Source: an uncultured bacterium (GTDB lineage: Bacteria; Patescibacteriota; Minisyncoccia; Moranbacterales; UBA2206). From it: a DNA stretch of 64,000 nucleotides. A program made the position numbers and the translations under genes. A model generated the notes under the pieces. That model worked only from the letters and a program-made list of their open reading frames with translations, was not told the origin of the DNA and did no database searches. Shown piece by piece: positions 9,962 to 38,276 of this stretch. The stretch's first letter is position 1. Each line of letters begins with the position of its first letter. The DNA is taken from positions 11,141 through 75,140 of the forward strand of contig CAIZXS010000009.1 in the NCBI GenBank assembly GCA_903937035.1, in the 5' to 3' direction.

Positions 9962-10212
9962 GCTATGGTTTGTTTTTCTTTTAGTCCTGACTTTTTTTAA
10001 AAAGGCAGGACGAATAAGAAACGCAAGTTTCAAGGATTGTTCTTTTGAAAAAACCGCTTAACCAATCGAGTTTGGAATAGATGTATTTTGCAGATTGGAT
10101 TGGCTAAGCGGAAAATCCCTTGCATACCAACAAGGGTTAACGTTTTTTTCTGGCGTTGATTGGTAGTCATCGCTAATGCGTGCCTGCGCGAAAAACAGGC
10201 GGAGGGAGAATT

Positions 10213-10824
10213 ATGAGAAGATGGATTTCAGGTATCTTAGGAGGGTTATTTGTACTGGCTGTGATAATTGGCGTGGGGTATTACGGTAATTATCTTTGGA
10301 ATCAAGGAATAATTAGAAATCTCTCTTCCAGAGGGACGGCGGCGGATCATTTAGTTTTGGACAGATCCGAACCATCAACGCTTCGTTATGAGCTTCCGCA
10401 AGTTTCGGCGGCGCAGCAGTCACCAGCACTTCCCGTTGGAGAAAAAACGATGACAATTGACAAGCTCATCGTCAGGGAGGTTGTTGTTGACAGACAAACT
10501 GTTGAAAATTCGCATGTGAAGAAGAAGGAGGTTGATTATTCACATACGAAAAAAAAGGAAGTCGATCAGGAACAAGTGAAGTGTCAGAAAGTTGACCATT
10601 CAAAGGTCGACTATCAAGATGTCGATTACTCGCATGTCAAGCGCCAAGATGTCGACGACCAGTATGTCAATCGTCAGCATATCAACAAGCGGCGCACTGG
10701 TGGAGGCGCAGTCGCAAGGGTTGCGACAAAAGCTCCTTGTCCATCGGGCGTATGCAGCGAGTACGCCTGGAATCCGGCGGATTCCCGCCAGCCTGCTCAG
10801 GGGACAGTGTCCCTGAGGCAGTAG
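10213..10824 (+). CDS. Small membrane-anchored/secreted repeat protein (paralog A)
   Basis: ATG at 10213 preceded by 'GGAGGGAG'. N-terminal hydrophobic anchor, six tandem 10-aa repeats (HVKKKEVDYS...), and a C-terminal 'APCPSGVCSEYAWNPADSRQPAQGTVSLRQ' tail shared with paralog B. Relatively GC-rich. Confidence 0.6.
   Translation: MRRWISGILGGLFVLAVIIGVGYYGNYLWNQGIIRNLSSRGTAADHLVLDRSEPSTLRYELPQVSAAQQSPALPVGEKTMTIDKLIVREVVVDRQTVENSHVKKKEVDYSHTKKKEVDQEQVKCQKVDHSKVDYQDVDYSHVKRQDVDDQYVNRQHINKRRTGGGAVARVATKAPCPSGVCSEYAWNPADSRQPAQGTVSLRQ
10510..10692 (+). repeat. Six in-frame 30-nt tandem repeats encoding decapeptides (HVKKKEVDYS-like) within 10213-10824
   Basis: HVKKKEVDYS / HTKKKEVDQE / QVKCQKVDHS / KVDYQDVDYS / HVKRQDVDDQ / YVNRQHINKR. 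Confidence 0.65.
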
Positions 10825-10884
10825 AAAATCGATCCTGGGGTGTGTCGTGCATGCACGCATACTCTAGGATTGTCTCAAATTAAA

Positions 10885-10990
10885 AATTACATTTCTTTAG
10901 AACATATAAGATTAATTACTTATATATTTCATAAGGAGTGGAAATTTAGCTCCGATGTTCTTATCAGAATAAGTCTTCTCGTGGAAGACT
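10885..10990 (+). promoter_or_regulatory. Conserved ~110-nt leader upstream of paralog B (copy 1 of 2)
   Basis: 'aattacatttctttagaacatataagattaattacttatatatttcataaggagtgg.aatttagctcc...' is repeated at 11594-11705 with compensatory changes in a distal hairpin. Confidence 0.55.
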
Positions 10991-11030
10991 ATGAAATTAA
11001 ACACTTTTTATAAAGAGAAGGGAGTCTATT

Positions 11031-11405
11031 ATGAAGAAGATAGTGTTTATCGTAGTTTTGGCAATTGCAATGGCTATCATGTACGCTTCGCCAAGGTATG
11101 GTGAGGCGGGAGAGTGGCCAAATATTGGCCACACAGAATGGAAAAAATCCGTACATGGTGGGAACGAAACCACCAAACAGTACTATGACCGGATGACGGT
11201 CACCTCACATGAATCTTTTCCGGAATCATTTTCGTCCGGACCTTCCCTGGAGGATAATTGGTTCCCAGTAGAGGGAAATGACAGCTCGAAGAATCCAAGC
11301 GATGAGCTTTTAGGCACAGCTCCGAAGGCATCGAAACCAGAAGCAGGGGTTTCTGCGAGTCCAGCGCTGTTAGTGGAGAAATTGCCATGTCCAAACGGTG
11401 GTTGA
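11031..11405 (+). CDS. Small signal-peptide protein (paralog B), ends at a TGA aligned to a Cys of paralog A
   Basis: 124 aa with a signal peptide 'MKKIVFIVVLAIAMAIMYA'. It ends 'LPCPNGG' + TGA. The next 60 nt in frame encode '..AAWNPADPHQPAQGTVSPRQF', homologous to the tail of paralog A. Confidence 0.6.
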   Translation: MKKIVFIVVLAIAMAIMYASPRYGEAGEWPNIGHTEWKKSVHGGNETTKQYYDRMTVTSHESFPESFSSGPSLEDNWFPVEGNDSSKNPSDELLGTAPKASKPEAGVSASPALLVEKLPCPNGG

Positions 11406-11593
11406 TCCTCAGCTGCCTGGAATCCAGCTGATCCGCACCAGCCCGCACAGGGGACAGTGTCCCCGCGGCAGTTTTAAAACCAATCTTGGGTGTGTGTTAT
11501 GCAAAATCATCGCATACATGCCCCAAGGTTATCTCAAAATTCAGCTATTGACAAAAAAACGAGAATAGGTATACAATAATTAGTTAAATGAAT

Positions 11594-11705
11594 AATTACA
11601 TTTCTTTAGGACATATAAGATTAATTGCTTATATATTTCATAAGGAGTGGTAATTTAGCTCCGTAGTTCTTATGCCAGAAAGCAGGTGTTCTGCTGGAAG
11701 GCTAC
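11594..11705 (+). promoter_or_regulatory. Conserved leader upstream of paralog C (copy 2), preceded by a TTGACA-17-TACAAT promoter-like insert
   Basis: Same leader sequence as 10885-10990. Upstream, 'ttgacaaaaaaacgagaataggtatacaat' looks like a sigma70-type promoter. Confidence 0.5.
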
Positions 11706-11736
11706 AAATCAAAGTTTATTTTAAGGAGGAGTCGCT

Positions 11737-12120
11737 ATGATGAAGTGCAGCAAATCTTTGTATTTTCTGGCAATCATTTTGGTGGTTGGGATGGTTTTTA
11801 TCCAGACCGCTTCCGCATTTCAAACCTATAACAATACCCGTCCAGGAGGAACGCAGCAATTGACTGGTGTTGATTCGGCTGAAATTCGTCCGAATTTGTT
11901 GAACCCCGGCGCACAGCTGTGGTTCCACGATGACGGAAGATGGGACGCACAGGGAGGAAAGTTTTCCCTACTGTTTCCTTCACAGGAGGCCTTTCAGGCC
12001 TACTGTGCCAACCCCAACCCCAGCCCTGCTGAGCTCCGACGGCTTGCAGAAGCAGAGCCTTTGTGTCCAAGCTCCGTCGGTAAAGGACAGAAGTGGTTAA
12101 TGTTTAAAGTCAACCGCTAA
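11737..12120 (+). CDS. Small signal-peptide protein (paralog C)
   Basis: 127 aa with signal peptide 'MMKCSKSLYFLAIILVVGMVFIQTASA'. Same conserved ~110-nt leader as paralog B. C-terminal 'EPLCPSSVG' echoes the 'PCPxG' motif of A and B. Confidence 0.6.
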   Translation: MMKCSKSLYFLAIILVVGMVFIQTASAFQTYNNTRPGGTQQLTGVDSAEIRPNLLNPGAQLWFHDDGRWDAQGGKFSLLFPSQEAFQAYCANPNPSPAELRRLAEAEPLCPSSVGKGQKWLMFKVNR

Positions 12121-12205
12121 TGTCCGACAGTCCTAATTCCAAAGTGTGGAAAGTGTGCCAAAAGCACGCCGACCACCAAGGAGTTGGGACTGGTTTTATT
12201 TTAGA

Positions 12206-12236
12206 CAATCAAAAAACAGGCCATAAACCTGTTTTT
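12206..12236. terminator. Bidirectional terminator between convergent genes 11737(+) and 12262(-)
   Basis: AACAGGCCATAAACCTGTT flanked by an A-run and a T-run. Confidence 0.6.
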
Positions 12237-12261
12237 ATATTGCAAAAAAAATATACATTTT

Positions 12262-13269
12262 TTAAATATTTATTTCATACTTTTGTATTAATTTTTTCAA
12301 CTTTTCCATTTTTTCAGTTTGATCTTTTTTCCACCAGATGTGAAGAGTCATAAGTGAGCGGATCATGAGAGCGGCGTTCAGAGATTTTTCATCAATCGGT
12401 GTGATTGAGTTATAGCCGATTAGGATTTCGCTTTCTTCCTCAAGTCCGACTTTTTCACTTTCTGCTTCGATGCGTGATTTTATCAGTGTCGAAGCTAAGC
12501 ACATCATTGGGTGAGTGATTTTTGGGTTTGGGTCAAAAACGATGATCTCACCATCTTTGTAAAATAAATTATAAGGCCGAAAATCGTTATGGGTGAAAGA
12601 GGGTTTCTTTCCCGTTTTCATTTCATCGTCTAGAAATGCGAGCGCCTTATTCAGGGGCGCGTAAATTGCCTCCTGCAAAATACCCGCTTCAAGCATTTTG
12701 GGCAGTTTTTCTTCGAAAAGATTGTCTTTGATTTCTTCTTGAAAAGTGGCAAATTTGCCATGCACATTTGCTCCTGCAATTGCGTTGCCAAATCCATGAC
12801 TGGTCAGCTTGTGCAGCTTAGCCAAAATCTCTCCACTGGTTCTTGAAATTGCGCTGCTTATGCGCTCCTTGGTGTCCATGCTGTCGCTAAGCAGTGGTGC
12901 GTCAATATATTCCATTGTAGTAAAAGAGATTGGTGTTTTTTTATCTGCCATGTGTTTTCCGAGGATCTTGGGCACTCTTATCCCTGCCTTCCCCCAGCTT
13001 TCCAGAAAATGAGGTTCTGCTTCAATTGTTTCTTTGGCCGTTCCCATCTTAACGATATAGGGATTTTCTTTCCCAAGGTTAAGGCAGAAAACAACTGAAC
13101 GTGAACCGCGAGAAAACAACTCTAGATGGTCTAAGTCGATTGCTTGTTCAGGCAGGAGTCCATTTTGAGCAGCTAAAACTAAATTTGCCTTCGCTTCTTG
13201 GCGGAACTTAACTTCCTGCTCTTTCATCCAAGGTTCAATATTTATAGTTGCCTTAAAAATATTTTCCAT
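12262..13269 (-). CDS. Aminoglycoside/choline-kinase-like phosphotransferase (protein-kinase-like fold)
   Basis: 335 aa with a Brenner-type catalytic motif 'HNDFRPYNLF' and a downstream 'DPNPK' (DFG-like) region. Confidence 0.55.
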   Translation of the reverse strand: MENIFKATINIEPWMKEQEVKFRQEAKANLVLAAQNGLLPEQAIDLDHLELFSRGSRSVVFCLNLGKENPYIVKMGTAKETIEAEPHFLESWGKAGIRVPKILGKHMADKKTPISFTTMEYIDAPLLSDSMDTKERISSAISRTSGEILAKLHKLTSHGFGNAIAGANVHGKFATFQEEIKDNLFEEKLPKMLEAGILQEAIYAPLNKALAFLDDEMKTGKKPSFTHNDFRPYNLFYKDGEIIVFDPNPKITHPMMCLASTLIKSRIEAESEKVGLEEESEILIGYNSITPIDEKSLNAALMIRSLMTLHIWWKKDQTEKMEKLKKLIQKYEINI

Positions 13270-13287: not shown

Positions 13288-14226
13288 CTATTGTTTTTTT
13301 CGCGCATTGAAATCTACGCAGCCTTCTTTGATTGCCAGGGTGCATTTGCAATAGGGGACTTGGCATTTCTGCACTTTCTCATGCAGGTTTAACTTTCCTT
13401 CGAACATATTACCGAGAATTTCATTGTCGTGCGGGCAGCGCGTGATTGATCCATCAGGACGAATGCGGATAAGATCTTTTCCGGCCGTGCAGGGGACATT
13501 CATAAAAGATAGACTTTCAAAGCTAGCCACGCGATCGACTTCGGATGGAATGTGATCATGGAAAATTTTTCGCTCTTCCTCGCTATAGGCTTTGGGATAA
13601 TTTTTTCCCTCATAAGTTCCGCGGAAAGCACGCGCTTCCAGAATAAAGCCTTCTTTTTTGAACTGCTCAAAAATGGCCGGGAAGCGTTTGATGTCTGGTG
13701 GGTACATTACATAGTTAATTTCGACGCGAAAGCCCGCATCGCGCAAGCGCTTTACTTTCTCGAGCAGATCATCAACTGTGAGTCCTTGGCGCTCACGTTC
13801 AGCCAGATGCATCGAAACATAGAATGACCAGATATTTTCAGGACTAACTTCGGCGAGAAATTTATCAATCGGAAGTCCAAGGTTTGTGCCAATTGTTACT
13901 AGATGTTTTTGAGAGAGACGTTTGACGATTTCCACAAAGCGCGGATAGACGAACGGTTCTCCGCCGGAAATCACTAACCACCATTTCTTGCCCGTGTCGT
14001 CAAAAAATTGGCCGATTTGCTCGGGCATGATGAAATGCGTTTTATAGGGATTGATGGCGGGGACTTTGCTTCTGACCCAATCGCCAGCTCTTGTTTTGAG
14101 GCTGCGTTGTGAGTCATCAAAAAAGCAATAGGGACATTTGAAATTACATTCCAGGTTCAGTAGCCACATGGCAATTTTGTCATAACTCTTTTGTTTCGGG
14201 GAGCTTATTTTTGGGTTTTGGTTCAT
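13288..14226 (-). CDS. Radical SAM domain protein
   Basis: 312 aa with 'CNFKCPYC' (CxxxCxxC) near the N-terminus and a Cys-rich C-terminal region (SPASM/twitch-like). Confidence 0.7.
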   Translation of the reverse strand: MNQNPKISSPKQKSYDKIAMWLLNLECNFKCPYCFFDDSQRSLKTRAGDWVRSKVPAINPYKTHFIMPEQIGQFFDDTGKKWWLVISGGEPFVYPRFVEIVKRLSQKHLVTIGTNLGLPIDKFLAEVSPENIWSFYVSMHLAERERQGLTVDDLLEKVKRLRDAGFRVEINYVMYPPDIKRFPAIFEQFKKEGFILEARAFRGTYEGKNYPKAYSEEERKIFHDHIPSEVDRVASFESLSFMNVPCTAGKDLIRIRPDGSITRCPHDNEILGNMFEGKLNLHEKVQKCQVPYCKCTLAIKEGCVDFNARKKQ

Positions 14227-21196: not shown

Positions 21197-21286
21197 ATTA
21201 AAAAATGCTTGACAAAAAGCTAGATTTAGTGTAGGCTGAACAGTTAATATGATTTGGCAATAATAACCTGTAAATCGTTAATTTTT

Positions 21287-22651
21287 ATGCAAAAAAGTAA
21301 TCGCAATTTTATTTTATTTTGGATTTTTTCTATCCTATTTCTCGTAGGTTGGTATTTTTATTGGCAAGTGAAAAATAATAAGGAATTTGGGACAATGAGT
21401 GCTGTTATCGATTTTTTGCCAATGAACGAACTTAAAAAGGCCAAGTTCAAAACAATGGCTGGCTTTGCTGAGTATCTTTTTGCGAAAGACGGAGAGGAAA
21501 AAACGTTTATGTTGCTTTTTCAAAATAACATGGAGCTTCGTCCCGGCGGGGGATATATCGGTTCGTTTGGAGTTTTAAAAATGCAAGACGGAAAAGTTTT
21601 AGATCTTTCCACGCATGACCTTTCGAATTTTGATGGACGCGTTCCCAATGGCATTGCTCCTCCATATCCAATCAAAGAAACCTTACGCGTTTCGGATTGG
21701 AAGCTGCGCGACTCAAATTTTTCTCCAGATTTTTTGGAGAATACTAAGAAAGCTGATGAGTTTTATCGCTTGGGTCAGGGACAGGAAGATTTTGCGGGGA
21801 TTGTGGCAATTAATAGTAATGTGCTCACTTCTTTTCTCAAAGTGACGGGACCGGTGGAGATTCCAGGTTATCCGGGAACTTATGACAGTGAAAATGCAGT
21901 TCTTGATCTAGAATATCAAGTTGAACAAGGAGCTTACAAGCAGGGTATTGAAAGAGGCGAGAGAAAAAGCATAATGAATCTGTTGGCAAAAGAAATCCAG
22001 AAAAAAGTTTTCACGCTTAGTATGAGTGAGAAAATAAAACTTGCAGAGATCATTTTGGATGATTTGAATCGCAAAGACATTCAATTGTATTTTAAGGATG
22101 ATAAACTGGAAAGACAGGCGCAGCTTGCGCAGTGGGATGGTAGCGTGGACAAGAATTGGTCAGAGGACTACCTGATGTTGGTTGATGCCAATATGGGATC
22201 TTTGAAAAGCGATTATTACATGCGCCGGTCATTTAACTATACGGTAGATTTATCAGGAGATGTTCCTCGGGCTAATTTGAAAGTGACCTACAATCATACT
22301 GGGAAGGAAAAAAATTGGATGACAAAAGATTATCTGACTTATCTGCGAGTCTACGCTCCAAAAAGTAGTTGGCTTACAGATTCGAAGAATTTGGGCGAGA
22401 AGCGATTTGGTGATGACTTGGGCAAAAAATATTTTGGGACATTAGTGGGCGTCCCTTTGGGTCAAACGAAAACAATTGAATTTTTCTATGATCTGCCAAG
22501 AGCAGCGGTGGAAAATTATGACCTCTTAATCCAGAGACAATCTGGCTCTGGCGAGGTGAAGGGAGAAGTGATAATTATATATAAGAGTCAAAAGAAGATG
22601 GTCTATCAGGTTAATCTTTCAAGTGATTGGAAATTGAGTGATAATCAATAA
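21287..22651 (+). CDS. Membrane-anchored extracytoplasmic protein, paralog of 57651-59111 ('NNMELRPGGG' family)
   Basis: The track ORF begins at a TTG at 21254; the first ATG is at 21287. N-terminal TM. Shares long blocks with 57651-59111: 'KTFMLLFQNNMELRPGGG', 'W+LRDSNFSPDF', 'GIVAINSNVL..LKVTGP', 'MMVDANMGSLKSDYYM'. Confidence 0.6.
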   Translation: MQKSNRNFILFWIFSILFLVGWYFYWQVKNNKEFGTMSAVIDFLPMNELKKAKFKTMAGFAEYLFAKDGEEKTFMLLFQNNMELRPGGGYIGSFGVLKMQDGKVLDLSTHDLSNFDGRVPNGIAPPYPIKETLRVSDWKLRDSNFSPDFLENTKKADEFYRLGQGQEDFAGIVAINSNVLTSFLKVTGPVEIPGYPGTYDSENAVLDLEYQVEQGAYKQGIERGERKSIMNLLAKEIQKKVFTLSMSEKIKLAEIILDDLNRKDIQLYFKDDKLERQAQLAQWDGSVDKNWSEDYLMLVDANMGSLKSDYYMRRSFNYTVDLSGDVPRANLKVTYNHTGKEKNWMTKDYLTYLRVYAPKSSWLTDSKNLGEKRFGDDLGKKYFGTLVGVPLGQTKTIEFFYDLPRAAVENYDLLIQRQSGSGEVKGEVIIIYKSQKKMVYQVNLSSDWKLSDNQ

Positions 22652-28557: not shown

Positions 28558-30057
28558 ATGAAAGAACTTAAAAAGAATAAGTATAAAATTTTGCGTAACA
28601 GGAGGGTGATGCCGCTTCCTGCGATTTGGAATGGCAAAAGCCAATCGAGTGAGGGCGCAAGAAATATCCATCATGTCGCTCTAAAAAAGATCTGGAATTA
28701 TCTTGAAAATGAAGAAATAATCGCATTTTACATAGGAGAGGAGTGGACTGATATTGGAGAATATATCGCAAAAAGAATGATTGAGGATAAAAAGTATATT
28801 CCCAATGTGTATAAGCTGCAAAGGGAAAGGGGGAGATTCTTGGTTTTGCTTTCAAAGGAAATCCGAAGATTGAAATTGGGCAATCTCAATTTAGACCAAC
28901 TTTTTGCGGAGTATCAAAAAATTGAAAATGCGTGGGTTGATTTTGATCATGTTAATATGCCGACTTGGCTTATCGGAGGTGAATATTTTCAAATAAAGCT
29001 CAAAAACAAGCTGGGTATGTTGGGTATATCAGAAGAAGAGATATATACACTTTTGACACCGAATGAATTATCCTTCAGTGCAAAGGAAGAGTTGGGAATT
29101 TTGAAAATAGCGCTAAAATTAAAAAGTGATTTGCGAAGCAATAAGAAGTGGATTCTTTCAGGTGATGCAAGGAGGGGCATGGCTGCATTGGTAAAAAAAT
29201 ATCATTGGATTCCTTTCGGTTATGATGGTCCAGATCTTTATGATACAAAGTATTATGAAAAAGCCGTGCGAGAAATGGTGGAAAAAATGAATTCAAGAGA
29301 AATTAAGCAAAAAATTGAAAAAATAGACAGCTACAGCTCGAAAATAAAAGAAAGGCAGGGAAAAATTTTTGCAAAATATCACTTATCGAAAGAGCTGAGA
29401 AGACAGATCAAAATCATCCAGACCTTAGCCAAAATGACGGACGAACGAAAGGAGTATACTTTTCAATCGCACATTGCATTTCAAGGTGTAATAGAACATA
29501 TAGCACGAATCTTGGGGCATGATTGCTTGGTGCTAAAGCATCTTATTTTGGATGAGATTAGGCAATATCAGAATGATCCGAAAAAAATTATTAAGTTGGG
29601 AGAAGAAAGAATGAAAAGCCCTGTGATGTTTTATAGGCATGATGGGAAGCTGGACATTATCACTGGCCCAAGAGCGAAAAAAATGTTCAAAGAAATGATT
29701 GGAGAGGATGTCGCTTCGGATGGTTTGATTTTAAAAGGCAGTGTGGGAAGCAAGGGGAGTGTTCCAATTGTGCGAGGAATCGTTAGAATTCTTAGTACAC
29801 CGCAAGAGATGAATAAATTAAAAGACGGAGAAATTTTGGTGACGGCGATGACTACGCCGGAATATGTTCCGGCGATGCGTCGCAGCCTCGCCATCATCAC
29901 CGACGAAGGCGGCGTGACGTGTCACGCGGCGATTGTGAGCCGCGAGCTGGGAAAGCCTGCGATTATCGGCACAAAAATCGCGACAAAATTTTTGAAAAAC
30001 GGAGAGTTCATTGAAATGGATATGAAAAAAGGCCAAATAAAAAAACTAGCCCAATGA
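28558..30057 (+). CDS. PEP-utilizing-enzyme mobile (swivel phosphohistidine) domain protein with a ~380-aa helical N-terminal domain; no ATP-grasp domain
   Basis: The C-terminal 100 aa 'GEILVTAMTTPEYVPAMRRSLAIITDEGGVTCHAAIVSRELGKPAIIGT' match the phosphohistidine swivel domain of PEP synthase, PPDK and rifampin phosphotransferase. Confidence 0.75.
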   Translation: MKELKKNKYKILRNRRVMPLPAIWNGKSQSSEGARNIHHVALKKIWNYLENEEIIAFYIGEEWTDIGEYIAKRMIEDKKYIPNVYKLQRERGRFLVLLSKEIRRLKLGNLNLDQLFAEYQKIENAWVDFDHVNMPTWLIGGEYFQIKLKNKLGMLGISEEEIYTLLTPNELSFSAKEELGILKIALKLKSDLRSNKKWILSGDARRGMAALVKKYHWIPFGYDGPDLYDTKYYEKAVREMVEKMNSREIKQKIEKIDSYSSKIKERQGKIFAKYHLSKELRRQIKIIQTLAKMTDERKEYTFQSHIAFQGVIEHIARILGHDCLVLKHLILDEIRQYQNDPKKIIKLGEERMKSPVMFYRHDGKLDIITGPRAKKMFKEMIGEDVASDGLILKGSVGSKGSVPIVRGIVRILSTPQEMNKLKDGEILVTAMTTPEYVPAMRRSLAIITDEGGVTCHAAIVSRELGKPAIIGTKIATKFLKNGEFIEMDMKKGQIKKLAQ

Positions 30058-30120
30058 TAGTGTGAACACAAGGTTCACGATATATCATTAGGCTAGCGAC
30101 GTAGTTGGTTGGTTTGCCAA

Positions 30121-30624
30121 TTACATTTGGAGTGCGGGGTCAAAAACTCCATATGCAATCATCTGATCAATCTGACGAATTTCTCCGTCATTACAGAGGA
30201 TGCGATATACTGCCGCGCTCTTTCCGTTGATGCCCAAGGCGATCATGAAAGGTCTGCCGGAACAAACCACAGTTTTATCTGCAAGCCCTGTGATAAACCT
30301 TTTTGCAGATACGGAGTTGTCGGCGAGGGAGGTGTACAGGGCGATATTGATATGGGTTCCATCGGACAGGATTACAATTTTTTCACCGTCAATGACTTCC
30401 ATGCTGTCGGGATCGCCAACAACGGAAGAATAACGACGGATTTCATTGTAATTCAGTGCTGTGGCCACATCAAGATGGCGTCCCCCGGTTCCAACAACCA
30501 AAACGGGTATTTTTACGGGAAGGAGGTGGCGGAGAGATGCGATTTCTTCAAATCCCTTGGGAGTCATGCGGGGATTTGGGCCATTAGTCTTATCACCATG
30601 AGTTACTACAAAAATTTCGTTCAT
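30121..30624 (-). CDS. Small SixA-like histidine-phosphatase-fold protein (degenerate RHG as THG)
   Basis: 167 aa. 'FVVTHGDK', then 'MTPKGFEEIASL', then 'VLVVGTGGRHLDVATAL', matching the SixA layout RHGDA...PLT.xG...LVSPFxRAxQT. Assignment is tentative. Confidence 0.35.
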   Translation of the reverse strand: MNEIFVVTHGDKTNGPNPRMTPKGFEEIASLRHLLPVKIPVLVVGTGGRHLDVATALNYNEIRRYSSVVGDPDSMEVIDGEKIVILSDGTHINIALYTSLADNSVSAKRFITGLADKTVVCSGRPFMIALGINGKSAAVYRILCNDGEIRQIDQMIAYGVFDPALQM

Positions 30625-30714
30625 TCTCGGGTCCTTTCATAATTGCTATTGGTTTGTAAAATGTACTTCCAAGCTTTTTATTTTAACTGCTAATTATATA
30701 TCAAATTCAGCTAA

Positions 30715-33700
30715 TTGTCAAGCCGTCGCTTAGCTAGAGCTGATTTGAGCCTCAATATGCTTACAAAAAACTTCCAACAACTATCCAAATCAGACGCTCA
30801 AATCGCCGGTGGCAAAGGTGCGTCACTTGGCGAAATGACAAACGCGGGAATTCCAGTTCCACCCGGCTTTGTCGTGCTTTCTGATGCTTTCGAACAGTTC
30901 CTTGCCGAAACGGATTTGAATGTGGAAATTGAGGCAATTCTCAAAACTGTGGATAATCAGAAAATGCATACGGTGGAAAATGCGTCAGAAGAAATTCAAG
31001 CGCTAATTCTCCAAGCTAAGATGCCGGAAGATATTGCAAAAGAGATTCAGGAAAACTTCAAAAAACTAGATGCCAAGTTTGTAGCCGTGAGATCAAGTGC
31101 CACCGCCGAAGATGGTGCAGAAGCGGCCTGGGCTGGGCAGCTAGACAGTTATCTCAATACGAACCAAGAAGCACTTCTCAGAAACGTCCAAAAATGTTGG
31201 GCGTCACTTTTCACGCCGAGAGCCATCTTTTATCGCTTTGAAAAAAAACTGCACAAGCAAAAAATATCCGTGGCAGTGGTCGTGCAAAAAATGATCCAAA
31301 GTGAAATTTCTGGCATCGCTTTTTCCGTTCATCCAGTCACCGAGGATTATAATCAAATGATTATCGAAGCTGGCTTTGGTTTGGGCGAAGCGATTGTTTC
31401 CGGGTCAATTACGCCGGATGCCTATGTGGTGAGCAAAAATCCGAGAAAAATAGAGGACATCAATATTTCCCAGCAGCCCAAGGGACTTTTTAGAAAAAAA
31501 GATGGCGGAAATGCCTGGCAAGATATTCCCGAGAAAGAAGGCAAAAAACAAAAACTATCAAAAAAACAAATCCTGGAATTGTCAGATCTAATCATAAAAA
31601 TCGAAGACCACTATCAATTCCCGGTGGACATTGAGTGGGCATATGAAAACAAGAAATTCTATATTGTGCAATCGAGACCGATTACGACGCTTATCAAAAA
31701 GTTGGGAGATATGCCAAAGAAAAATGTTGGCAGTGGAAGTGGAATCTTGGAGAATAATTTAGGCAAAAAGGATGGAAAAGTAATTGGGAAATTGTCGGAC
31801 TACCAACAAATGTTTAAATGGCAAAATTCTCTTCCTTATCTCGTAACGTCACTTTTTTTGACTTACTATAAAAAATTAGATGTTTTGATTCTGTCTGATC
31901 CTAAGTTGTGGGTAGCATATTTGCCTCTATCGAAAATGGAAAAAACTCACCAAGATGGGTTTAAGATTTATGGTGACAAAAAAAGATATGCAGAGTATAG
32001 GGATGACTTTAAGAAGTATATGGAAAATTCCGAGAAGTTCTTTAAGAATGTTATCCACAGTAAAGATTTGGACAAAAGCCAGACAAGAGAATTCTTGAAT
32101 AGGGTGGCAAAACTTTTTTCGTATTATTCAAAAGCAGAATTTTTTTATACTGAAAAGGCATACTTTGAGCAGGAGAATAACCTGGCTATCAAAGAAAATT
32201 TTGCAACTTTTGAGCAGCTAAAAATAGATGGTCGAAAATTTTTGAATAAAATATTTTTCGAAAAAGATACCTACTTGCTCCAACTAATGAATAGATTATC
32301 CGAAAAATTCAAAATTTCATCAGATTTTCTTCTGACATATAATCAACAAGAAATTCTCGATTTGTTTGAGGGGGGTATTGTGGATGAAAAAATAATTTTG
32401 CAAAGAAAAAGAGCGTATATTTCAAAAGGAAAAAAGGAGGGGATTGCTAGTTATCATGGAACGGAAGCGGAGAAAATGATTAAAGAATTTAATTCGGAGC
32501 AATCTGAAAGCGGAAATGTGTTGAAAGGGCAAGTTGCCAATAAGGGATATGCGAAAGGCGAAGCTCGAGTTTTTAAATTTGGCTTGAATGATTTTCATCT
32601 ATTGAAAGAAATGATTGATTCTATGAAAAAGGGAGAAATATTGGTAGCTGAAACTACGGCGCCTGAAATAATGGTAGCTTGCCAAAAAGCTAGCGCTATC
32701 GTGACTAATCAGGGAGGCATGATGAGTCATGCAGCGATTATTTCACGAGAAATCGGCATCCCGTGTATTGTGGGGACAAGTATTGCAACAGAGGTTATCC
32801 AAAATGGCGATTTGGTGGAAGTGGATGCTAATGAGGGAGTGGTGAGAATTTTAAGAAGAAACTCTGATGAAGAAAGTGGAATTGTTTTCAACAAAAAGTA
32901 TGAGCGTGTTTTTGGCGGACCGAATATGTCGTTTCTAATTTCGGATATTATTACGGATGTGTATGCCCCAAAATATGGATTCGTGACGATGTATAAAAAT
33001 TCCATTTGGACATGCTACATGCCCATTGAAGAAAAAAACAAAACTTTAGCAGAAGGAGCGGAGTTGTATGAGAATATGGAGAAGTATGAGGAATTTAGAA
33101 GTGAATATCTGAAATTTATTGATGCTTATGATAAACACTTTCGCGAAATATTTAATCCAAATAAAGTTATTACCAAAGAAATATTTGAAGCGCTTATTGA
33201 TCTATTTAAAAAAGCGGAGTCATATTATGCATATACGCAATATTTCTACACCGATGGGATTTCCCAAGCAAATAAAGAATTTGAAGTAGAATTTGGAGCT
33301 CTCAAAGAAAAGGGTCGAGAACTTTTGAATAGGCAATATTTTTCTGGCAATAATTACCTAAACGAAGTCCTTGAGGCAGTTTCTAAGATAATAGCTATTA
33401 AAAAAGATGAACTGTATAATTATGCCTGGCAGGATATTAGTTTGCTTTGGAATAGCAATAATGCCAAAAAAGACATTCGTAAATGGGAAACTTATGTCAC
33501 GTATCCAATAAATGGGTCCAAGAGCACTGCCTTTGAATCGGAAGCTTTGGAAATTATTGATCAATTTTTATCAAATCATAACGATCACCGTGAAATACTG
33601 AGTGGCACGGTTGCCAATAGGGGCAAAGTCGTGGGTAATGCTTATGTTCTTGATAAGGGCTATGATCACAGGGGTATCGGAAAATTTATTGATGAGATGG

Positions 33701-35241
33701 AAAAAGGCGCTATTCTTATCACTGAGACAACTTCGCCTGAGATCATGACTGCTTGCGAGAAAGCCAGCGCAATTGTGGCTAATCAAGGAGGACTGATGTC
33801 GCACGCCGCCATCGTTTCTCGGGAATTAGACATCCCTTGCATTGTCGGATTGGAGGGAGCGACTGAAATTATAAAGAATGGTGATTTGGTTGAAGTGGAT
33901 GCGGATAATGGAATCGTTAGGATTTTGGAAAAGGCGAAAAATGATGAATATTTCAAGTTCAAATTTCCGGCCTATCGGTATTTTATGGCAAATAGGCTGA
34001 TTCCTACTTTTAAATATGAAGGGGTCTATTTATGGGGGGAGATATTTGGCGAATATTCTTTCGATGGTATACACAGAACTTGCACTAATAAAAACGTTCT
34101 CCTTGAGCCGGGAAAAAAACTTTTTGCGCTACTGAAAAAAGGTGATCAAAAACTGGAAAAAGAACTTCTTGCGCTTGTGAATAAGATTATTCCATTGGCA
34201 AGAGATCTTCAAGAAATTATCTTGAGAGATAAGCTCACCGGTCATGTTTCCAATCTCAATGATTTTTTCCCCAATTACGAGAAAGTATTCAATAAAGCCT
34301 TGGCGTTCGGTTATCCTCTTGATTATGCTATTGATGAATATCTCAAGAAAGATGCTTCGCTCTCAGAAAATTTGCAATCCCCATACAGTTCTTTTTTGAT
34401 GGAGGAGGAATATGAATTGTATGAAATATTTTCAAAAAAATATAAAAAACCAGAACTAGGCAGGGCACTTGAGCGCCACCTGGCGAAATATGCTTGGATT
34501 AAATCTGATTATCAAGGAGAAAATGTGCTGACAATTGATGATTTATATGCAAAAGAAGCTCGGCTGATGGATACGAAACAGGAAAAAACCAAAAGTGTCG
34601 GTGGAAAAATTTCCGCTCCAAAAAATTTGCAGGAATGGATTTCTCTTCTGATATATTTGAGAGATGTGAGAAAAAAAGTAGGGATGATTGGTGTGGTTTT
34701 GCTAGACCGATATTTAAAGCAGGAATGTCAAAGATTGAAAAAAGATTATCTGAAAGCCAGACTGTTATCGGTGGCAGAGTTTGAGCAGTATAAAAATAAA
34801 AAACTTCCGGAATATCTGGACAAAAGAAATGAACGCATGTCTCCTGATGGCATAGAAATTATACCCAATGAAAAATGGCAAAAGTATCCCTTTAATCAAG
34901 AAGTGGTGGTGGACAAGGAAAAGCTTTTAACAGGAGTGGTTGCCAATAAAGGTAAGGTTAAGGGAATAGCAAGGATAATCATTGGAAAACACGATTTTCA
35001 TAAGATGGGAAAAGGAGAGATTATCGTTGCTTCAATGACTAGACCGGAATTTATGCCAATTCTCAGAAAAGCTTCTGCCATACTAACTGAGCAGGGTGGC
35101 ATCACTTGTCACGCAGCGATTATCTCAAGAGAGTTGGGTGTGCCTTGTATTATTGGTATCGAAAATCTGACAGCGGCATTGAAGGACGGAGATTTGGTGG
35201 AAGTAGACGCGGATAATGGGGTGGTTAGAATTTTGAAATAA
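30715..35241 (+). CDS. Giant multidomain phosphotransferase: PEP-synthase-type N-terminal ATP-grasp (PPDK_N) domain plus three [helical domain + swivel phosphohistidine domain] modules
   Basis: 1508 aa; the track ORF starts at a TTG at 30715, and the first ATG is at 30757. Residues 1-325 match PEP synthase/RPH ATP-binding domains ('AQIAGGKGASLGEM', 'VAVRSSATAEDG', 'FSVHPVTED', 'YIVQSRPIT'). Swivel domains with catalytic His lie at ~nt 32560-32850 (QGGMMSHAAIISRE), 33600-33920 (QGGLMSHAAIVSRE) and 34920-35238 (QGGITCHAAIISRE). Confidence 0.8.
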   Translation: MSSRRLARADLSLNMLTKNFQQLSKSDAQIAGGKGASLGEMTNAGIPVPPGFVVLSDAFEQFLAETDLNVEIEAILKTVDNQKMHTVENASEEIQALILQAKMPEDIAKEIQENFKKLDAKFVAVRSSATAEDGAEAAWAGQLDSYLNTNQEALLRNVQKCWASLFTPRAIFYRFEKKLHKQKISVAVVVQKMIQSEISGIAFSVHPVTEDYNQMIIEAGFGLGEAIVSGSITPDAYVVSKNPRKIEDINISQQPKGLFRKKDGGNAWQDIPEKEGKKQKLSKKQILELSDLIIKIEDHYQFPVDIEWAYENKKFYIVQSRPITTLIKKLGDMPKKNVGSGSGILENNLGKKDGKVIGKLSDYQQMFKWQNSLPYLVTSLFLTYYKKLDVLILSDPKLWVAYLPLSKMEKTHQDGFKIYGDKKRYAEYRDDFKKYMENSEKFFKNVIHSKDLDKSQTREFLNRVAKLFSYYSKAEFFYTEKAYFEQENNLAIKENFATFEQLKIDGRKFLNKIFFEKDTYLLQLMNRLSEKFKISSDFLLTYNQQEILDLFEGGIVDEKIILQRKRAYISKGKKEGIASYHGTEAEKMIKEFNSEQSESGNVLKGQVANKGYAKGEARVFKFGLNDFHLLKEMIDSMKKGEILVAETTAPEIMVACQKASAIVTNQGGMMSHAAIISREIGIPCIVGTSIATEVIQNGDLVEVDANEGVVRILRRNSDEESGIVFNKKYERVFGGPNMSFLISDIITDVYAPKYGFVTMYKNSIWTCYMPIEEKNKTLAEGAELYENMEKYEEFRSEYLKFIDAYDKHFREIFNPNKVITKEIFEALIDLFKKAESYYAYTQYFYTDGISQANKEFEVEFGALKEKGRELLNRQYFSGNNYLNEVLEAVSKIIAIKKDELYNYAWQDISLLWNSNNAKKDIRKWETYVTYPINGSKSTAFESEALEIIDQFLSNHNDHREILSGTVANRGKVVGNAYVLDKGYDHRGIGKFIDEMEKGAILITETTSPEIMTACEKASAIVANQGGLMSHAAIVSRELDIPCIVGLEGATEIIKNGDLVEVDADNGIVRILEKAKNDEYFKFKFPAYRYFMANRLIPTFKYEGVYLWGEIFGEYSFDGIHRTCTNKNVLLEPGKKLFALLKKGDQKLEKELLALVNKIIPLARDLQEIILRDKLTGHVSNLNDFFPNYEKVFNKALAFGYPLDYAIDEYLKKDASLSENLQSPYSSFLMEEEYELYEIFSKKYKKPELGRALERHLAKYAWIKSDYQGENVLTIDDLYAKEARLMDTKQEKTKSVGGKISAPKNLQEWISLLIYLRDVRKKVGMIGVVLLDRYLKQECQRLKKDYLKARLLSVAEFEQYKNKKLPEYLDKRNERMSPDGIEIIPNEKWQKYPFNQEVVVDKEKLLTGVVANKGKVKGIARIIIGKHDFHKMGKGEIIVASMTRPEFMPILRKASAILTEQGGITCHAAIISRELGVPCIIGIENLTAALKDGDLVEVDADNGVVRILK

Positions 35242-35276
35242 AAAAACAGCCCAATCTCTCGCAGGAGATTGGGCTG
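35241..35276 (-). terminator. Terminator (T-run on the minus strand) after the LMW-PTP gene; may also pause plus-strand transcription from the giant gene
   Basis: CAGCCCAATCTC-tcgcag-GAGATTGGGCTG, with an A7 run on the plus strand, which is a T7 run on the minus strand. Confidence 0.6.
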
Positions 35277-35288
35277 AGGTTGTGGCGG

Positions 35289-35735
35289 TTATTTTTCAGA
35301 AAACCGGCGCGTTACCACCCTGTACATCTTGGCCATGACGTTTTCGGCAACTTCGTCATGGTCTCGCTGGTCGCTGGATGGCCAGGGGTTGGAGAGTTGA
35401 ATGTTAAAGATCTTTTCGGTTGGTACCTTATACTTCCCGAAAAGTTCTCCGGCTACCGTCTCATCCACGCAAACGATGAGTTCATATCGTGATAGATCAA
35501 GTGAGCCGACCCATCTTTTCTGGTGGCCAGAGAGATCAAGCCCTAACCGTTTGGCAGAAACTACGCCATTAGGACTGGCGGAGCCACCGTTCTTGGTGAA
35601 CTCCATCATTCCAGCGCTTTCTACCGTAACTTCATGGCCAGCGTTTTGGAGATACATCCCCAGAACGGCAGCCATAAGCGGGCTGCGATCGGAATTGCCA
35701 ATACATACACAAAGAACTTGTTTGATATTAAGCAC
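35289..35735 (-). CDS. Low-molecular-weight protein tyrosine phosphatase / arsenate-reductase-fold phosphatase
   Basis: 148 aa with an N-terminal P-loop 'VLCVCIGNSDRSPLMAAVL' (CX4-5R, CxGNxxRS signature). Confidence 0.75.
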   Translation of the reverse strand: MLNIKQVLCVCIGNSDRSPLMAAVLGMYLQNAGHEVTVESAGMMEFTKNGGSASPNGVVSAKRLGLDLSGHQKRWVGSLDLSRYELIVCVDETVAGELFGKYKVPTEKIFNIQLSNPWPSSDQRDHDEVAENVMAKMYRVVTRRFSEK

Positions 35736-35897
35736 TATTCACCTCACTGGTTGATTGTTTTGCCATTGTGGCACATGAAAACTACTTTCCTCGACTGACC
35801 CAATAGTATAGCATATCTAGCGTAAAAAGTCAAATGTCAGTTTGATTTTATGGTTTAAATGGGGTAGTATTGAGTAAGATTGGATAATTTTTGATGT

Positions 35898-37388
35898 ATG
35901 GAGAGGAAAAATAGCTATCAAAAAATGTGGGGAGCGCACGCGATGGGCGTTTTTTGGGGTGAGCTGGTGATGCGCAATTTTTCTAGGAAGAATAAATATA
36001 AAACGGTGGCCGGTATCAGCGAAAAAAACGCTGTTTTTTATTATCACAAAAGCGTGGGAACAGCATTTTATAATTCAGTTCCCGAAATGGACGTATCGGG
36101 CGCAATTGGTCGGGAAAGATTTTCTAATCAAAAAGAACTAAAGAAATATATTGAAAATTCCAAGGAGGCTATTGGAAAATCTGATGCATTGTATTTTGAC
36201 GTGTTAAAAGAAGACTTAGATAAAAAGAACGCTAGAGCGCTTTTCAACCTATTGGAAGCGCAAGCAGATTGTTTTAATGAGATATACAGCTACTATCATG
36301 CTTGTCAGCCACAATATTTTTCTGAAATAGAAAAAGATATAAAATTATATCTGGCTAAAAAAGGACTGAGTCGAGAGGCTAATTATTATATCGGCTTACT
36401 TTCTTCTCAGGAAGAATTGGATGTGATCGCCAAAGAGGAAGTTGAATGGCTGACTATTGCCAGGATGATGCAAGAAAAAAAGTTAGATAGGGCTTCATTG
36501 GTCGAAGCTAGCGAGATGGAAAATAAATTAAAAAGGCATATTGATAAATATATGTCTTTAGGTAGCGGGGAGGGAGGGCGACCATGGGATAAAAAGTATT
36601 ATTGGGGTATTTTTGAAAAAATTGATTTTGATATTAATAAGAAGATATCAGATATTAATGAAAGAAAAAAAGTCTTAATGCAAGAAAAAGAGGCATTTAT
36701 TCGGGAGAAAGAAATTTCCAATGAGGTCGTGGAACTTGCCAATGCCGTGGGAAAACTTGGCATGCTGCGATTGGAGATTCGTCTCAGTTGGATGCGGTTT
36801 AGTCACACTATTACCAACACGCTTTTAGCGCTGGGGAAAGAAATTAGTCTTGATAATATCTTGGAAATAAGGATGGATGAAATCAGGAACATAATAGAAA
36901 ATAACGATCATGCAGTGACGGAAGAAGAAATAAAAAGACGCCAGGAAGCCTTTTTGTTTTTAGTTGAAAATGAAGAGGAAAAATTATTCATTGGAAATGA
37001 AGCGATTAGTCTCAAGGAAAAGCTTGTGCCTTCCGAGATTTCAGACACTTTGGAGATAAAAGGATTTGTGGCTTGCAAGGGTATGGTTCGAGGGAAAGTT
37101 TTTATGATTGATTGGAATAATAAAAATCTGACTGAAGCGATGAGAAACATGGCGGAAGGAGCTATTCTAATAGCTGGACAAACCAGACCTCAGCTTATGC
37201 CAGTTATCAAAAAAGCGGCGGCGATTGTAACTGATGAAGGAGGGATTATGTGTCACGCTGCTATTGTTTCCCGTGAGCTCAACATTCCTTGCATCATCGG
37301 CACCAAAATCGCTACCCAAGTTCTCAAAGATGGTGATTTGGTGGAGGTTGACGCAAATGAGGGAATTGTTAGAATTATAAAGAATTAA
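35898..37388 (+). CDS. PEP-utilizing-enzyme mobile domain protein (helical N-domain + swivel phosphohistidine domain)
   Basis: 496 aa with C-terminal 'GAILIAGQTRPQLMPVIKKAAAIVTDEGGIMCHAAIVSRELNIPCIIGT'. Same modular layout as 28558 and 38277. Confidence 0.75.
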   Translation: MERKNSYQKMWGAHAMGVFWGELVMRNFSRKNKYKTVAGISEKNAVFYYHKSVGTAFYNSVPEMDVSGAIGRERFSNQKELKKYIENSKEAIGKSDALYFDVLKEDLDKKNARALFNLLEAQADCFNEIYSYYHACQPQYFSEIEKDIKLYLAKKGLSREANYYIGLLSSQEELDVIAKEEVEWLTIARMMQEKKLDRASLVEASEMENKLKRHIDKYMSLGSGEGGRPWDKKYYWGIFEKIDFDINKKISDINERKKVLMQEKEAFIREKEISNEVVELANAVGKLGMLRLEIRLSWMRFSHTITNTLLALGKEISLDNILEIRMDEIRNIIENNDHAVTEEEIKRRQEAFLFLVENEEEKLFIGNEAISLKEKLVPSEISDTLEIKGFVACKGMVRGKVFMIDWNNKNLTEAMRNMAEGAILIAGQTRPQLMPVIKKAAAIVTDEGGIMCHAAIVSRELNIPCIIGTKIATQVLKDGDLVEVDANEGIVRIIKN

Positions 37389-37412
37389 AAATAATTAATT
37401 AATAAAAAAAAT

Positions 37413-38258
37413 ATGGAACAAAACGAATCAAGTATGTTTATGACTCGGCACACGATAAAGCCCAAAGGCGAGGATCTTAAATCGGAAAGATATCCTGGCG
37501 CGTCTGAGCGTGGCGTAGATTTGGCAAAAGAGAGAGCGAAGGAAGAGATCTTGAGTTTGATTGAAAAGGCAAAACCAGGAACAGTGGTGATTATTAGCGG
37601 TGCGTCTGAAGTGGACAGAACAAAATCAGCCGGAGAAATATATGGGGATGAGCTCCAGGAGTTACTCAAGGATAATCCGGGCTATCTGGTTGTCACAAGA
37701 AGCGAAGTTCAAGACATGTTGAGTCAAAAAGATGGCAAGGCACTTGATAAATTAGCAGAAATTGTTAGAAGTAATCCTGATAAAAAGATTGTTATTGATT
37801 TTCCATTATTCTTGAAAGAATTTGGTTTCGGTGCTGGGAGGTGGACAGAAAAAGATGGAAATCTTACAAAATATTTTCAAGCATTGTTAGAAAAACACAA
37901 TAATGATGAAATGGCATGCGTCAAGGATTGGATTGAAAATGAAGGACGCATTGATGGGTCGTCTTTGCAAGGACCGAATCCAGCTGAGATGGCAAAAGAG
38001 CACATCGAGGGACTAAAAAGAATTAATGATTTTGCTCGAAAACTGATTGGAGGGAGTCGGCCAATTATGGTGGGCGGTGTAGGGCATAGTGTGAATTTGG
38101 ATGCTACCGCAATATATTTGTCCAATAATGGTCAAGTAACAATGGAGGGATTTGAAAAACTAGGTGGGGAGTTGATAAAAGAAACCGAACTGATGCAGTT
38201 AGAGACAAAAGATGGAAAGACCATCTTCAATTACAGAGGCAAGGAATTTATTGTTTAG
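37413..38258 (+). CDS. Histidine phosphatase superfamily-like protein (paralog of 27693)
   Basis: 281 aa. 'FMTRHTIKPKG', 'VVIISGASEVDRTKSAGEI' and a second His in 'MVGGVGHSVNLDATAI'. Confidence 0.5.
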   Translation: MEQNESSMFMTRHTIKPKGEDLKSERYPGASERGVDLAKERAKEEILSLIEKAKPGTVVIISGASEVDRTKSAGEIYGDELQELLKDNPGYLVVTRSEVQDMLSQKDGKALDKLAEIVRSNPDKKIVIDFPLFLKEFGFGAGRWTEKDGNLTKYFQALLEKHNNDEMACVKDWIENEGRIDGSSLQGPNPAEMAKEHIEGLKRINDFARKLIGGSRPIMVGGVGHSVNLDATAIYLSNNGQVTMEGFEKLGGELIKETELMQLETKDGKTIFNYRGKEFIV

Positions 38259-38276
38259 TCTGCTAATTAGTAAATC

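Follow-up and report, generated by a model that had tools for sequence, protein, structure and literature searches.

We analyzed a 64,000-nucleotide (nt) stretch of contig CAIZXS010000009.1 (hereafter the window, to which all coordinates refer) whose source organism is a bacterium of the Candidatus Moraniibacteriota, within the Candidate Phyla Radiation (CPR). Inside a Wzx/Wzy-type surface-glycan cluster, the window carries a tandem array of three small genes, A, B and C, which together with the array features described below lie on the plus strand. An initial annotation of this DNA had called all three as small open reading frames (ORFs) with signal or anchor sequences, and we find each of them present and with a hydrophobic N-terminus. 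Gene A (10213-10824) begins with an ATG after the Shine-Dalgarno sequence GGAGGGAG and encodes an N-terminal membrane anchor, a region of ~10-residue repeats and a C-terminal Cys-loop module (coding sequence 10738-10821; CPSGVCSEYAWNPADSRQPAQGTVSLRQ), the last delimited by tail alignment, a six-frame pattern scan and a profile search. Gene B (11031-11405) encodes a signal peptide and a lineage-specific body and ends at a TGA (11403-11405) that occupies the expected site of the module's second Cys; a cut-off remnant of the module (SSAAWNPADPHQPAQGTVSPRQF, then TAA; 11406-11477) lies in frame after it. Gene C (11737-12120) encodes a signal peptide and a conserved domain (YNNTRPGG..DGRWD.QGGKFSL..CPSSVGKGQKW) with 18 homologues. 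None of the three proteins matches a Pfam or NCBIfam family. We are fairly confident in the overall reading developed here, in which three small exported-protein genes sit in a glycan cluster, the TGA of B is a derived nonsense mutation, and the sequence leading into the genes is a structured RNA.

The array is best understood from related loci. An exact search with a 23-nt core of the leader sequence against 185,579 species genomes returned one match, at the same locus of a Candidatus Moraniibacteriota metagenome-assembled genome (locus L008), which is the closest relative and whose flanking genes share 87-92% DNA identity with the window. Loci L009 and L010 came from a back-translated search with the tail alignment and L011-L022 are contigs encoding C homologues, so that the relatives' loci together represent about ten distinct related genomes. 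In all related loci examined, an A-like gene is directly followed by a C-like gene. The full order Wzz-like, A-like, C-like is found in L008, L009/L010, L017 and L020-L021; an equivalent order, with an unannotated gene of 213-234 residues in the Wzz position, is found in L011, L013 and L016; and L019 and L022 carry the A-like/C-like pair without a preceding Wzz-like gene. Downstream and on the opposite strand, a radical SAM (S-adenosylmethionine) gene and a Wzy_C gene are present in eight related loci, and L017 has no radical SAM gene in the 1.8 kb of contig 3' of C. Judged by these gene orders, A and C are ancestral, conserved members of the cluster. Among the related loci examined, only the window and L008 have gene B, which marks it as a young insertion, specific to this lineage, that separates A from C.

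Three copies of the leader are found in the window, one between the Wzz-like gene and A (copy 1, 9965-10031), one before B (copy 2, 10882-10953) and one before C (copy 3, 11591-11662). The near-identity of the leaders of B and C, reported earlier, holds (10877-10964 versus 11586-11673, 92% over 88 nt), but the element is not limited to these two genes, as it also precedes A. A pattern for the leader core occurs exactly twice in the window, against 0.00 occurrences expected by chance. Nearly all related loci have the same architecture upstream of A, and the closer relatives have it before C as well. In order, it consists of a pyrimidine strand (UUUCUU), a variable hairpin, a purine strand (AAGRAR) and, after that strand, a short hairpin. 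Beyond copy 2 the 5' untranslated region (UTR) runs on to 11030 with a distal hairpin at ~10972-10990, and beyond copy 3 it runs on to 11736 with a distal hairpin at ~11674-11702.

We aligned 20 leader instances from ~10 related genomes and compared the pairing with two controls, slid partner columns and 500 shuffles. RNAalifold predicts two helices, P1 (4 pairs) and P2 (10 pairs), with changes on both sides in 10 of the 14 pairs. The share of paired cells is 93.5%, compared to 43-52% with slid partners, cells changed on both sides number 58 compared to 3-20, and the observed covariation score is reached by 0 of the 500 shuffles. Single-sequence folds add an outer helix, P0, and copy 1 can form P0, P1 and P2 as well as an alternative hairpin (GAAAC-GCAA-GUUUC). 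In the 64-kb window, a covariance model picks out these three copies and no further one, at 58.5, 76 and 69.4 bits for copies 1 to 3, with plus-strand scores 22-56 bits higher than those of the opposite strand. A leave-out model built from 14 instances from other genomes, with no sequence from the window or L008, finds the same three copies (41.7 bits, E = 1.6e-8; 60.2 bits, E = 9.5e-14; 48.9 bits, E = 1.5e-10), and its next match in the window has E = 0.11. The covariance check suggested with the initial annotation shows covariation across ~10 genomes, and its suggestion of a conserved structured element was correct, if understated. Among 4227 Rfam families, none matches the window at gathering thresholds, and the region itself gives only chance-level matches far below them. 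Judged by this covariation, the leader is a previously undescribed structured 5'-UTR RNA that precedes A, B and C.

Predicted promoter-like sites lie just upstream of the leader motif in the window, L008, L019 and L022, which suggests that the motif sits at the mRNA 5' end and is hence transcribed. In the window, a sigma-70-like promoter (TTGACA-18-TACAAT, 11/12 consensus matches; 11548-11577) is predicted upstream of the leader copy before C, within a ~50-nt insertion that is absent from the other copy of the repeat; the equivalent promoter of L008 reads TTGACA-N17-TATAAT. These sites bear on an alternative, which we consider unlikely, that the leader acts as DNA to which a regulator binds, either an operator palindrome or a promoter element, and not as a folded RNA. 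The inner stem is indeed a perfect inverted repeat (ATATAAG / CTTATAT), and a weak promoter-like match (AGGACA-18-TATATT) overlaps copy 3. However, the stem sequences are wholly different between lineages and yet complementary, and the loops range from 4 to ~17 nt, so that neither half-sites nor -35/-10 boxes would keep their spacing. P1 also depends on G-U pairs that are possible on the plus strand only, in line with the strand difference in model scores, and the good predicted promoters of four genomes lie upstream of the motif, which places it within the transcript.

Reading the leader as RNA, we find that its purine strand can pair with a downstream strand to form another helix, P3 (GAAGC/GCUUC, GAAAC/GUUUC, GGAGU/GCUCC, GGAAC/GUUCC, AAAUG/CAUUU), and the best fold containing P3 lies 0-6.7 kcal/mol above the minimum. 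The leader would thus toggle between a long hairpin (P0-P1-P2) and the P3 fold, which are mutually exclusive, and would co-regulate the three genes after transcription initiation through translation, RNA stability or early termination. Post-initiation co-regulation of A, B and C is the most likely role in this model, in which switching would be the means. Two points weigh against it. P3 pairs fully in each of the 20 instances, which among them carry 8 different sequence pairs, but its strands were chosen by eye with no shuffle control. Of the 8 B/C-type leaders, just 3 are predicted to mask the Shine-Dalgarno sequence by pairing it with the downstream strand, and we therefore do not adopt such masking as the mechanism. 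Many leaders also have a distal hairpin, P4, set between GAAAG and GGAAG; an alignment of 14 gives no consensus for it, and a subset of 10 gives modest covariation in the outer stem. The distal hairpins of copies 2 and 3, between which compensatory changes had been claimed, are, taken alone, of ordinary thermodynamic stability (z = -0.1 and +1.2).

The second repeated element lies at the 3' ends of the genes. The shared 3' element of A and B was correctly recognized in the initial annotation (10765-10845 versus 11415-11495, 79% identity over 81 nt), and a degenerate pattern for it occurs exactly twice in the window against a chance expectation of 0.00. Pairwise alignment shows that the repeated unit is larger than had been noted, spanning the last ~30 codons of one gene, a strong hairpin and the 5' UTR of the next gene. 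The codons encode the module, a stretch of ~30 residues with the A-like consensus C-x1-4-C-x3-W-(N/D)-P-x-D-x2-3-Q-P-x2-G-x-(V/I)-(S/T)-x-R-x-(F/Y). Every A-like protein ends in this module, on bodies that are unrelated, of low complexity and fast-evolving. Across 13 tails both Cys residues are conserved, as are W, QP, G, V/I, S/T and R, and the four tails of the window and L008 differ mostly at synonymous sites, with a ratio of nonsynonymous to synonymous differences per site (pN/pS) of 0.25-0.49. A module profile searched against 1.84 billion representative proteins gives only 14 matches, ~11 of them true, and each of these is a small membrane-anchored protein whose extreme C-terminus is the module.

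The bodies that carry the module vary even between neighbors. The middle of A (10501-10700) consists of repeats of ~10 residues (VDYSHxKKKE-like), and similar repeats are found in a distant A-like protein (P0033). The A ortholog in L008 (A') has an unrelated Pro/Gln-rich middle, and the body has therefore been replaced or remodelled between close species. Many of the relatives' A-like proteins (P0022, P0023, P0024, P0026, P0027, P0028) have a second Cys motif, (I/V)N(I/V)YCGG(K)PC or NCCP, upstream of a Lys-rich stretch; A of the window is without it.

We next consider the TGA that separates B from its module remnant. As observed from the sequence at the outset, this TGA aligns with a Cys codon: 11403-11405 aligns gap-free with the TGC at 10753-10755 of A, and the frame after it stays open for 23 more codons, to the TAA at 11475-11477. 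The 4.5 kb around the TGA are 100% identical in seven contigs from six samples, so that the TGA is real and sequencing error is ruled out. An alternative genetic code (tables 4 or 25) is likewise ruled out because TGA is a normal stop in this DNA: it ends 12 of the 55 window genes, 10 of which have another in-frame stop within 0-6 codons. Under table 11, ORFs tile the window in long unbroken frames, and those with Pfam matches span the domains in full.

One orthologous locus decides the ancestral state. In L008, the B ortholog (B') has TGC at this codon, a full tail (...CPNGDCSPYAWNPADPYQPAPGTVSPRQF) and the same stop position, and TGC is therefore ancestral; A' has TGT at the aligned codon. 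No other module copy has lost either Cys residue (12 copies in the fetched loci and more in the profile search). These comparisons bear out the proposal of the initial annotation that a TGY-to-TGA change truncated B, and the TGA is most likely a derived nonsense mutation in a young paralog, not a selenocysteine codon. Eight of the nucleotide differences between B and B' are packed into 15 nt (GGT TGA TCC TCA GCT), and the tail's other 57 nt hold six. In B, Ala takes the place of the aromatic residue that follows the Cys pair in all other modules, and a Pro beside the site is also lost. As a separate observation, the substitutions at 11400-11431 create CAGCTG...CAGCTG, and the eight changes may be one multi-nucleotide (template-switch-like) event.

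The tail of B would have stayed recognizable without translation because the event would be recent, and possibly also through gene conversion from A. A codon within QPA(Q/P)G is of interest here: it is CAG in A and B of the window (10798-10800, 11448-11450), CCG in A' and B' of L008 (2255-2257, 2941-2943) and CCN farther out. The derived Q, common to A and B of this genome only, hints at gene conversion between the tails. Some observations weigh against this reading. All sampled contigs of the window species are identical and hence carry no population signal on the age of the TGA. After the TGA, B and B' differ with pS 0.40 and pN 0.10, which over 22 codons cannot separate a recent nonsense mutation from a tail that is still translated. 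The changes by the TGA also yield a perfect 7-bp hairpin (UCAGCUG-N9-CAGCUGA, -8.8 kcal/mol) 4 nt past the UGA, which an advocate of a selenocysteine insertion sequence (SECIS) could cite.

The tail's appearance of selection can be read in another way, namely that leaky or programmed read-through of the UGA yields mostly truncated B with a minor full-length form, so that the tail remains selected. UGA is generally the leakiest stop codon, and the B-specific changes in the tail are mostly synonymous (CCA, CCC, TTT) outside the three codons beside the stop. We nevertheless regard read-through as quite unlikely. There is no known or visible read-through signal at B, a read-through product would lack two residues that are invariant in the other modules, the second Cys and the aromatic one, and a recent mutation, or conversion from A, accounts equally well for the conserved tail; with a recent mutation, a selected-looking tail is to be expected.

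Less probable still, and in our view very much so, is that the UGA encodes selenocysteine, as a Cys-to-selenocysteine swap in a C-x4-C motif of a full-length B that retains its module. B does resemble bacterial selenoprotein genes in having an in-frame TGA at the position that is Cys in its paralog and ortholog, with a downstream frame that is open to the stop position of B' and looks selected (pN/pS 0.25). It also has the B-specific 7-bp hairpin beginning 4 nt past the UGA, and a canonical SECIS is absent from ~13% of known bacterial selenoprotein genes (PMC13326102). Against this, the 48-nt fold after the UGA is at background (z = -0.06 versus shuffles) and weaker than that of the same stretch of the Cys-coding A (-16.4 kcal/mol). 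The 64 kb of the genome in the window hold no tRNA and, among Pfam matches, no SelA, SelB or SelD family. Loss of the conserved aromatic residue and Pro beside the site fits decay better than recoding, every other module copy uses Cys, and the TGA is found in a single clonal species. The module would be extracytoplasmic, with a Cys pair typical of a disulfide loop. In titles and abstracts of the literature on selenocysteine or selenoproteins together with CPR or Patescibacteria, we found none on selenocysteine use in these bacteria. Selenocysteine, which the initial annotation had raised as an alternative, is thus not supported, given the background-level hairpin, the absence of selenocysteine genes and tRNAs from the window, and the decay beside the stop.

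The initial annotation had also suggested that the 3' element is conserved as RNA, with GGGGACAGTGTCCCC plus TTTT forming a terminator in B. In a wider form of this reading, the hairpin would be a terminator or regulatory element and the likeness of the peptides secondary. The codons of relatives argue otherwise. A hairpin, GGGGAC-AGT-GUCCCC, is found in A, B and B' and in slightly altered form in A', and in B it is followed 7 nt later by UUUU. However, L009 and L010 encode the G-T-V/I-S peptide by other codons (GGGACAGTCAGCCCG, GGGACAATCAGCCAG) that cannot form this hairpin; the Ser codon, for example, is TCC in the window and L008 and AGC in L009/L010. Because the hairpin is missing from relatives in which the peptide is retained, the 3' element is, on codon-level evidence, coding sequence conserved as protein. 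A consensus terminator scan does not report GGGGACAGTGTCCCC + TTTT, whose U run starts 7 nt past the stem, the hairpin in A falls inside the translated ORF, and each module tail is followed by a far stronger hairpin; conservation as RNA is thus highly improbable.

These stronger hairpins, of 40-50 nt, lie directly after the stop codon of A (10830-10872; -27.5 kcal/mol, z = -6.2; terminator- or attenuator-like, without a U tract) and, as its paralog, after the tail of B (11482-11530; -22.4 kcal/mol, z = -4.1; also without a U tract). Hairpins of different sequence are found at the equivalent place in L008, L017, L019, L020 and L021, and the post-tail hairpins probably attenuate or stabilize transcripts. 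They were also considered as integron-cassette attC sites; this was rejected by eye, with no integrase nearby and no GTTRRRY-type core visible.

The layout of these elements suggests a route by which B arose. B carries an A-type module and a C-type leader, and we propose that it would have originated when the junction made up of the A-type module, the hairpin and the leader underwent a tandem duplication that enclosed a new body. A TGC-to-TGA change in this species would then have removed the module from B, with the truncated protein secreted without it. Comparison with B' shows purifying selection on the body of B (ratio of nonsynonymous to synonymous substitution rates, dN/dS, 0.25). Among 5.8 billion proteins, the only B homologue is B itself. 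A point against the duplication route is that the body has no similarity to the bodies of A or C and no detectable source.

Gene C offers a clue to what the module does. In four C homologues (P0007, P0008, P0012 and P0016; P0007 is L019 4001-4444), the module directly follows the signal peptide and is fused to the C domain, with the pattern AQNPC.GK.C..GWN..D.RQP.PGQV.LR. In L019 the fusion coexists with a distinct A-like gene that carries a tail of its own. The natural fusion suggests that module and C domain work together, and we propose that the module would dock onto the C domain, or be processed with it, at the cell surface. A predicted structure of the fused protein is of low confidence, with a mean predicted local distance difference test (pLDDT) score of 61.9, below 50 in the module region, and a Foldseek search with it against the PDB gives nothing (best E = 1.6). 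C is followed by a predicted terminator, a long branched hairpin with a U tract (12128-12203; -35.8 kcal/mol, z = -5.4), and L013, L017 and L021 have a similarly shaped structure after C with partly conserved sequence (..UCAAAGU..[hairpin]..GACUGUCA..GGGGG-UUUU). A public gene call places a 77-residue ORF at 12120-12353; it is probably spurious because it overlaps both the C terminator and the 3' end of the opposite-strand kinase gene.

The surroundings of the array are those of a surface-glycan cluster. Pfam matches in the window identify the upstream neighbor as a Wzz-like chain-length gene, and beyond the array the opposite strand carries an APH-type kinase, the radical SAM enzyme, a Wzy_C protein, glycosyltransferases and a Bac_transf initiating sugar transferase, with a DUF4012 gene close by. 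The two DUF4012 genes of the window (21254-22651 and 57651-59111) each adjoin glycosyltransferases, and the window therefore seems to hold two surface-glycan clusters, at ~9-22 kb and ~50-64 kb. In the radical SAM protein (13288-14226, minus strand), a C-x12-G-x4-C stretch precedes CxxxxCxC close to the C-terminus, an arrangement like that of a twitch/SPASM auxiliary-cluster region, and the protein scores 37-62 bits against the nearest NCBIfam families (twitch, STM4011), whose cut-offs are 170-200. The array had been described as more GC-rich than the genome; there is an excess, but it is marginal (44-45% versus ~40% window-wide), and values up to 46% are seen in other 1-kb bins. Elsewhere in the window, four neighboring genes at 28558-39722 end in a PEP-utilising 'mobile' domain, an unusual paralogous set, and one of the proteins, of 1508 residues, has a PPDK_N domain and three mobile domains. 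At 61466-62730, a Polysacc_synt (Wzx-like flippase) gene is apparently split into ORFs of 304 and 116 residues that overlap at ATGA (62378-62380 / 62380), which could be a frameshift, a pseudogene or a genuine two-part gene.

Known systems share some of these features. Structured 5'-UTR regulators such as riboswitches, RNA thermometers and protein-binding leaders also have a conserved covarying fold at the predicted mRNA 5' end, and as in some of these, the leader offers two exclusive pairings of one strand and is repeated before functionally linked genes. It differs in belonging to no Rfam family, in lacking any consistent prediction of Shine-Dalgarno sequestration or of a terminator, and in coming so far from ~10 related CPR genomes only. 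The module resembles C-terminal tags (PEP-CTERM/exosortase, LPXTG/sortase, GlyGly-CTERM/rhombosortase) in being a short conserved C-terminal module on unrelated, fast-evolving bodies. PEP-CTERM proteins are typically encoded within exopolysaccharide-type clusters, and the module genes likewise lie inside such a cluster. Unlike these sorting tags, however, the tail (...AWNPADSRQPAQGTVSLRQ) is hydrophilic to its end, without a transmembrane helix or basic tail, and the module is also found at the mature N-terminus of C-like proteins. Family scans of the window find no sortase, exosortase or rhombosortase family. A third likeness is to peptides modified by radical SAM enzymes of the SPASM/twitch type (ranthipeptides, sactipeptides, QhpC-QhpD): a Cys-containing conserved peptide is encoded beside a radical SAM gene in 8 loci, and the C-x12-G-x4-C of the enzyme is like the start of a SPASM/twitch motif. 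In contrast to such ribosomally synthesized and post-translationally modified peptides, the module carriers have Sec-type signals or membrane anchors and not leader peptides, and the enzyme matches the twitch and STM4011 families only below cut-offs.

A more speculative reading joins these strands: the leader may be a new, bistable, riboswitch-like RNA class limited to CPR bacteria that co-regulates exported proteins with a Cys-loop tag, and the tag may dock on the C domain or be modified by the radical SAM enzyme or the glycan machinery, the whole forming an unrecognized accessory module of glycan clusters. We offer this tentatively, and regard it as possible but rather doubtful.

The leader RNA and the peptide module are both new, and the RNA is narrowly distributed. 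For annotation, B illustrates that a TGA aligned to Cys can signify nothing more than a recent nonsense change in a young gene copy, a case that one orthologous locus decided. To our knowledge, very few regulatory RNAs are known in CPR bacteria, and here an undescribed structured RNA with good covariation support precedes three linked genes of such a bacterium. The small, portable Cys-loop module links two families without assigned function, A and C, through gene neighborhood and natural fusions, and the surface-glycan clusters contain a conserved five-gene core of Wzz-like, A, C, radical SAM and Wzy_C genes. The RNA, the module and the core are handles on how episymbiotic ultra-small bacteria build their surface and regulate it.

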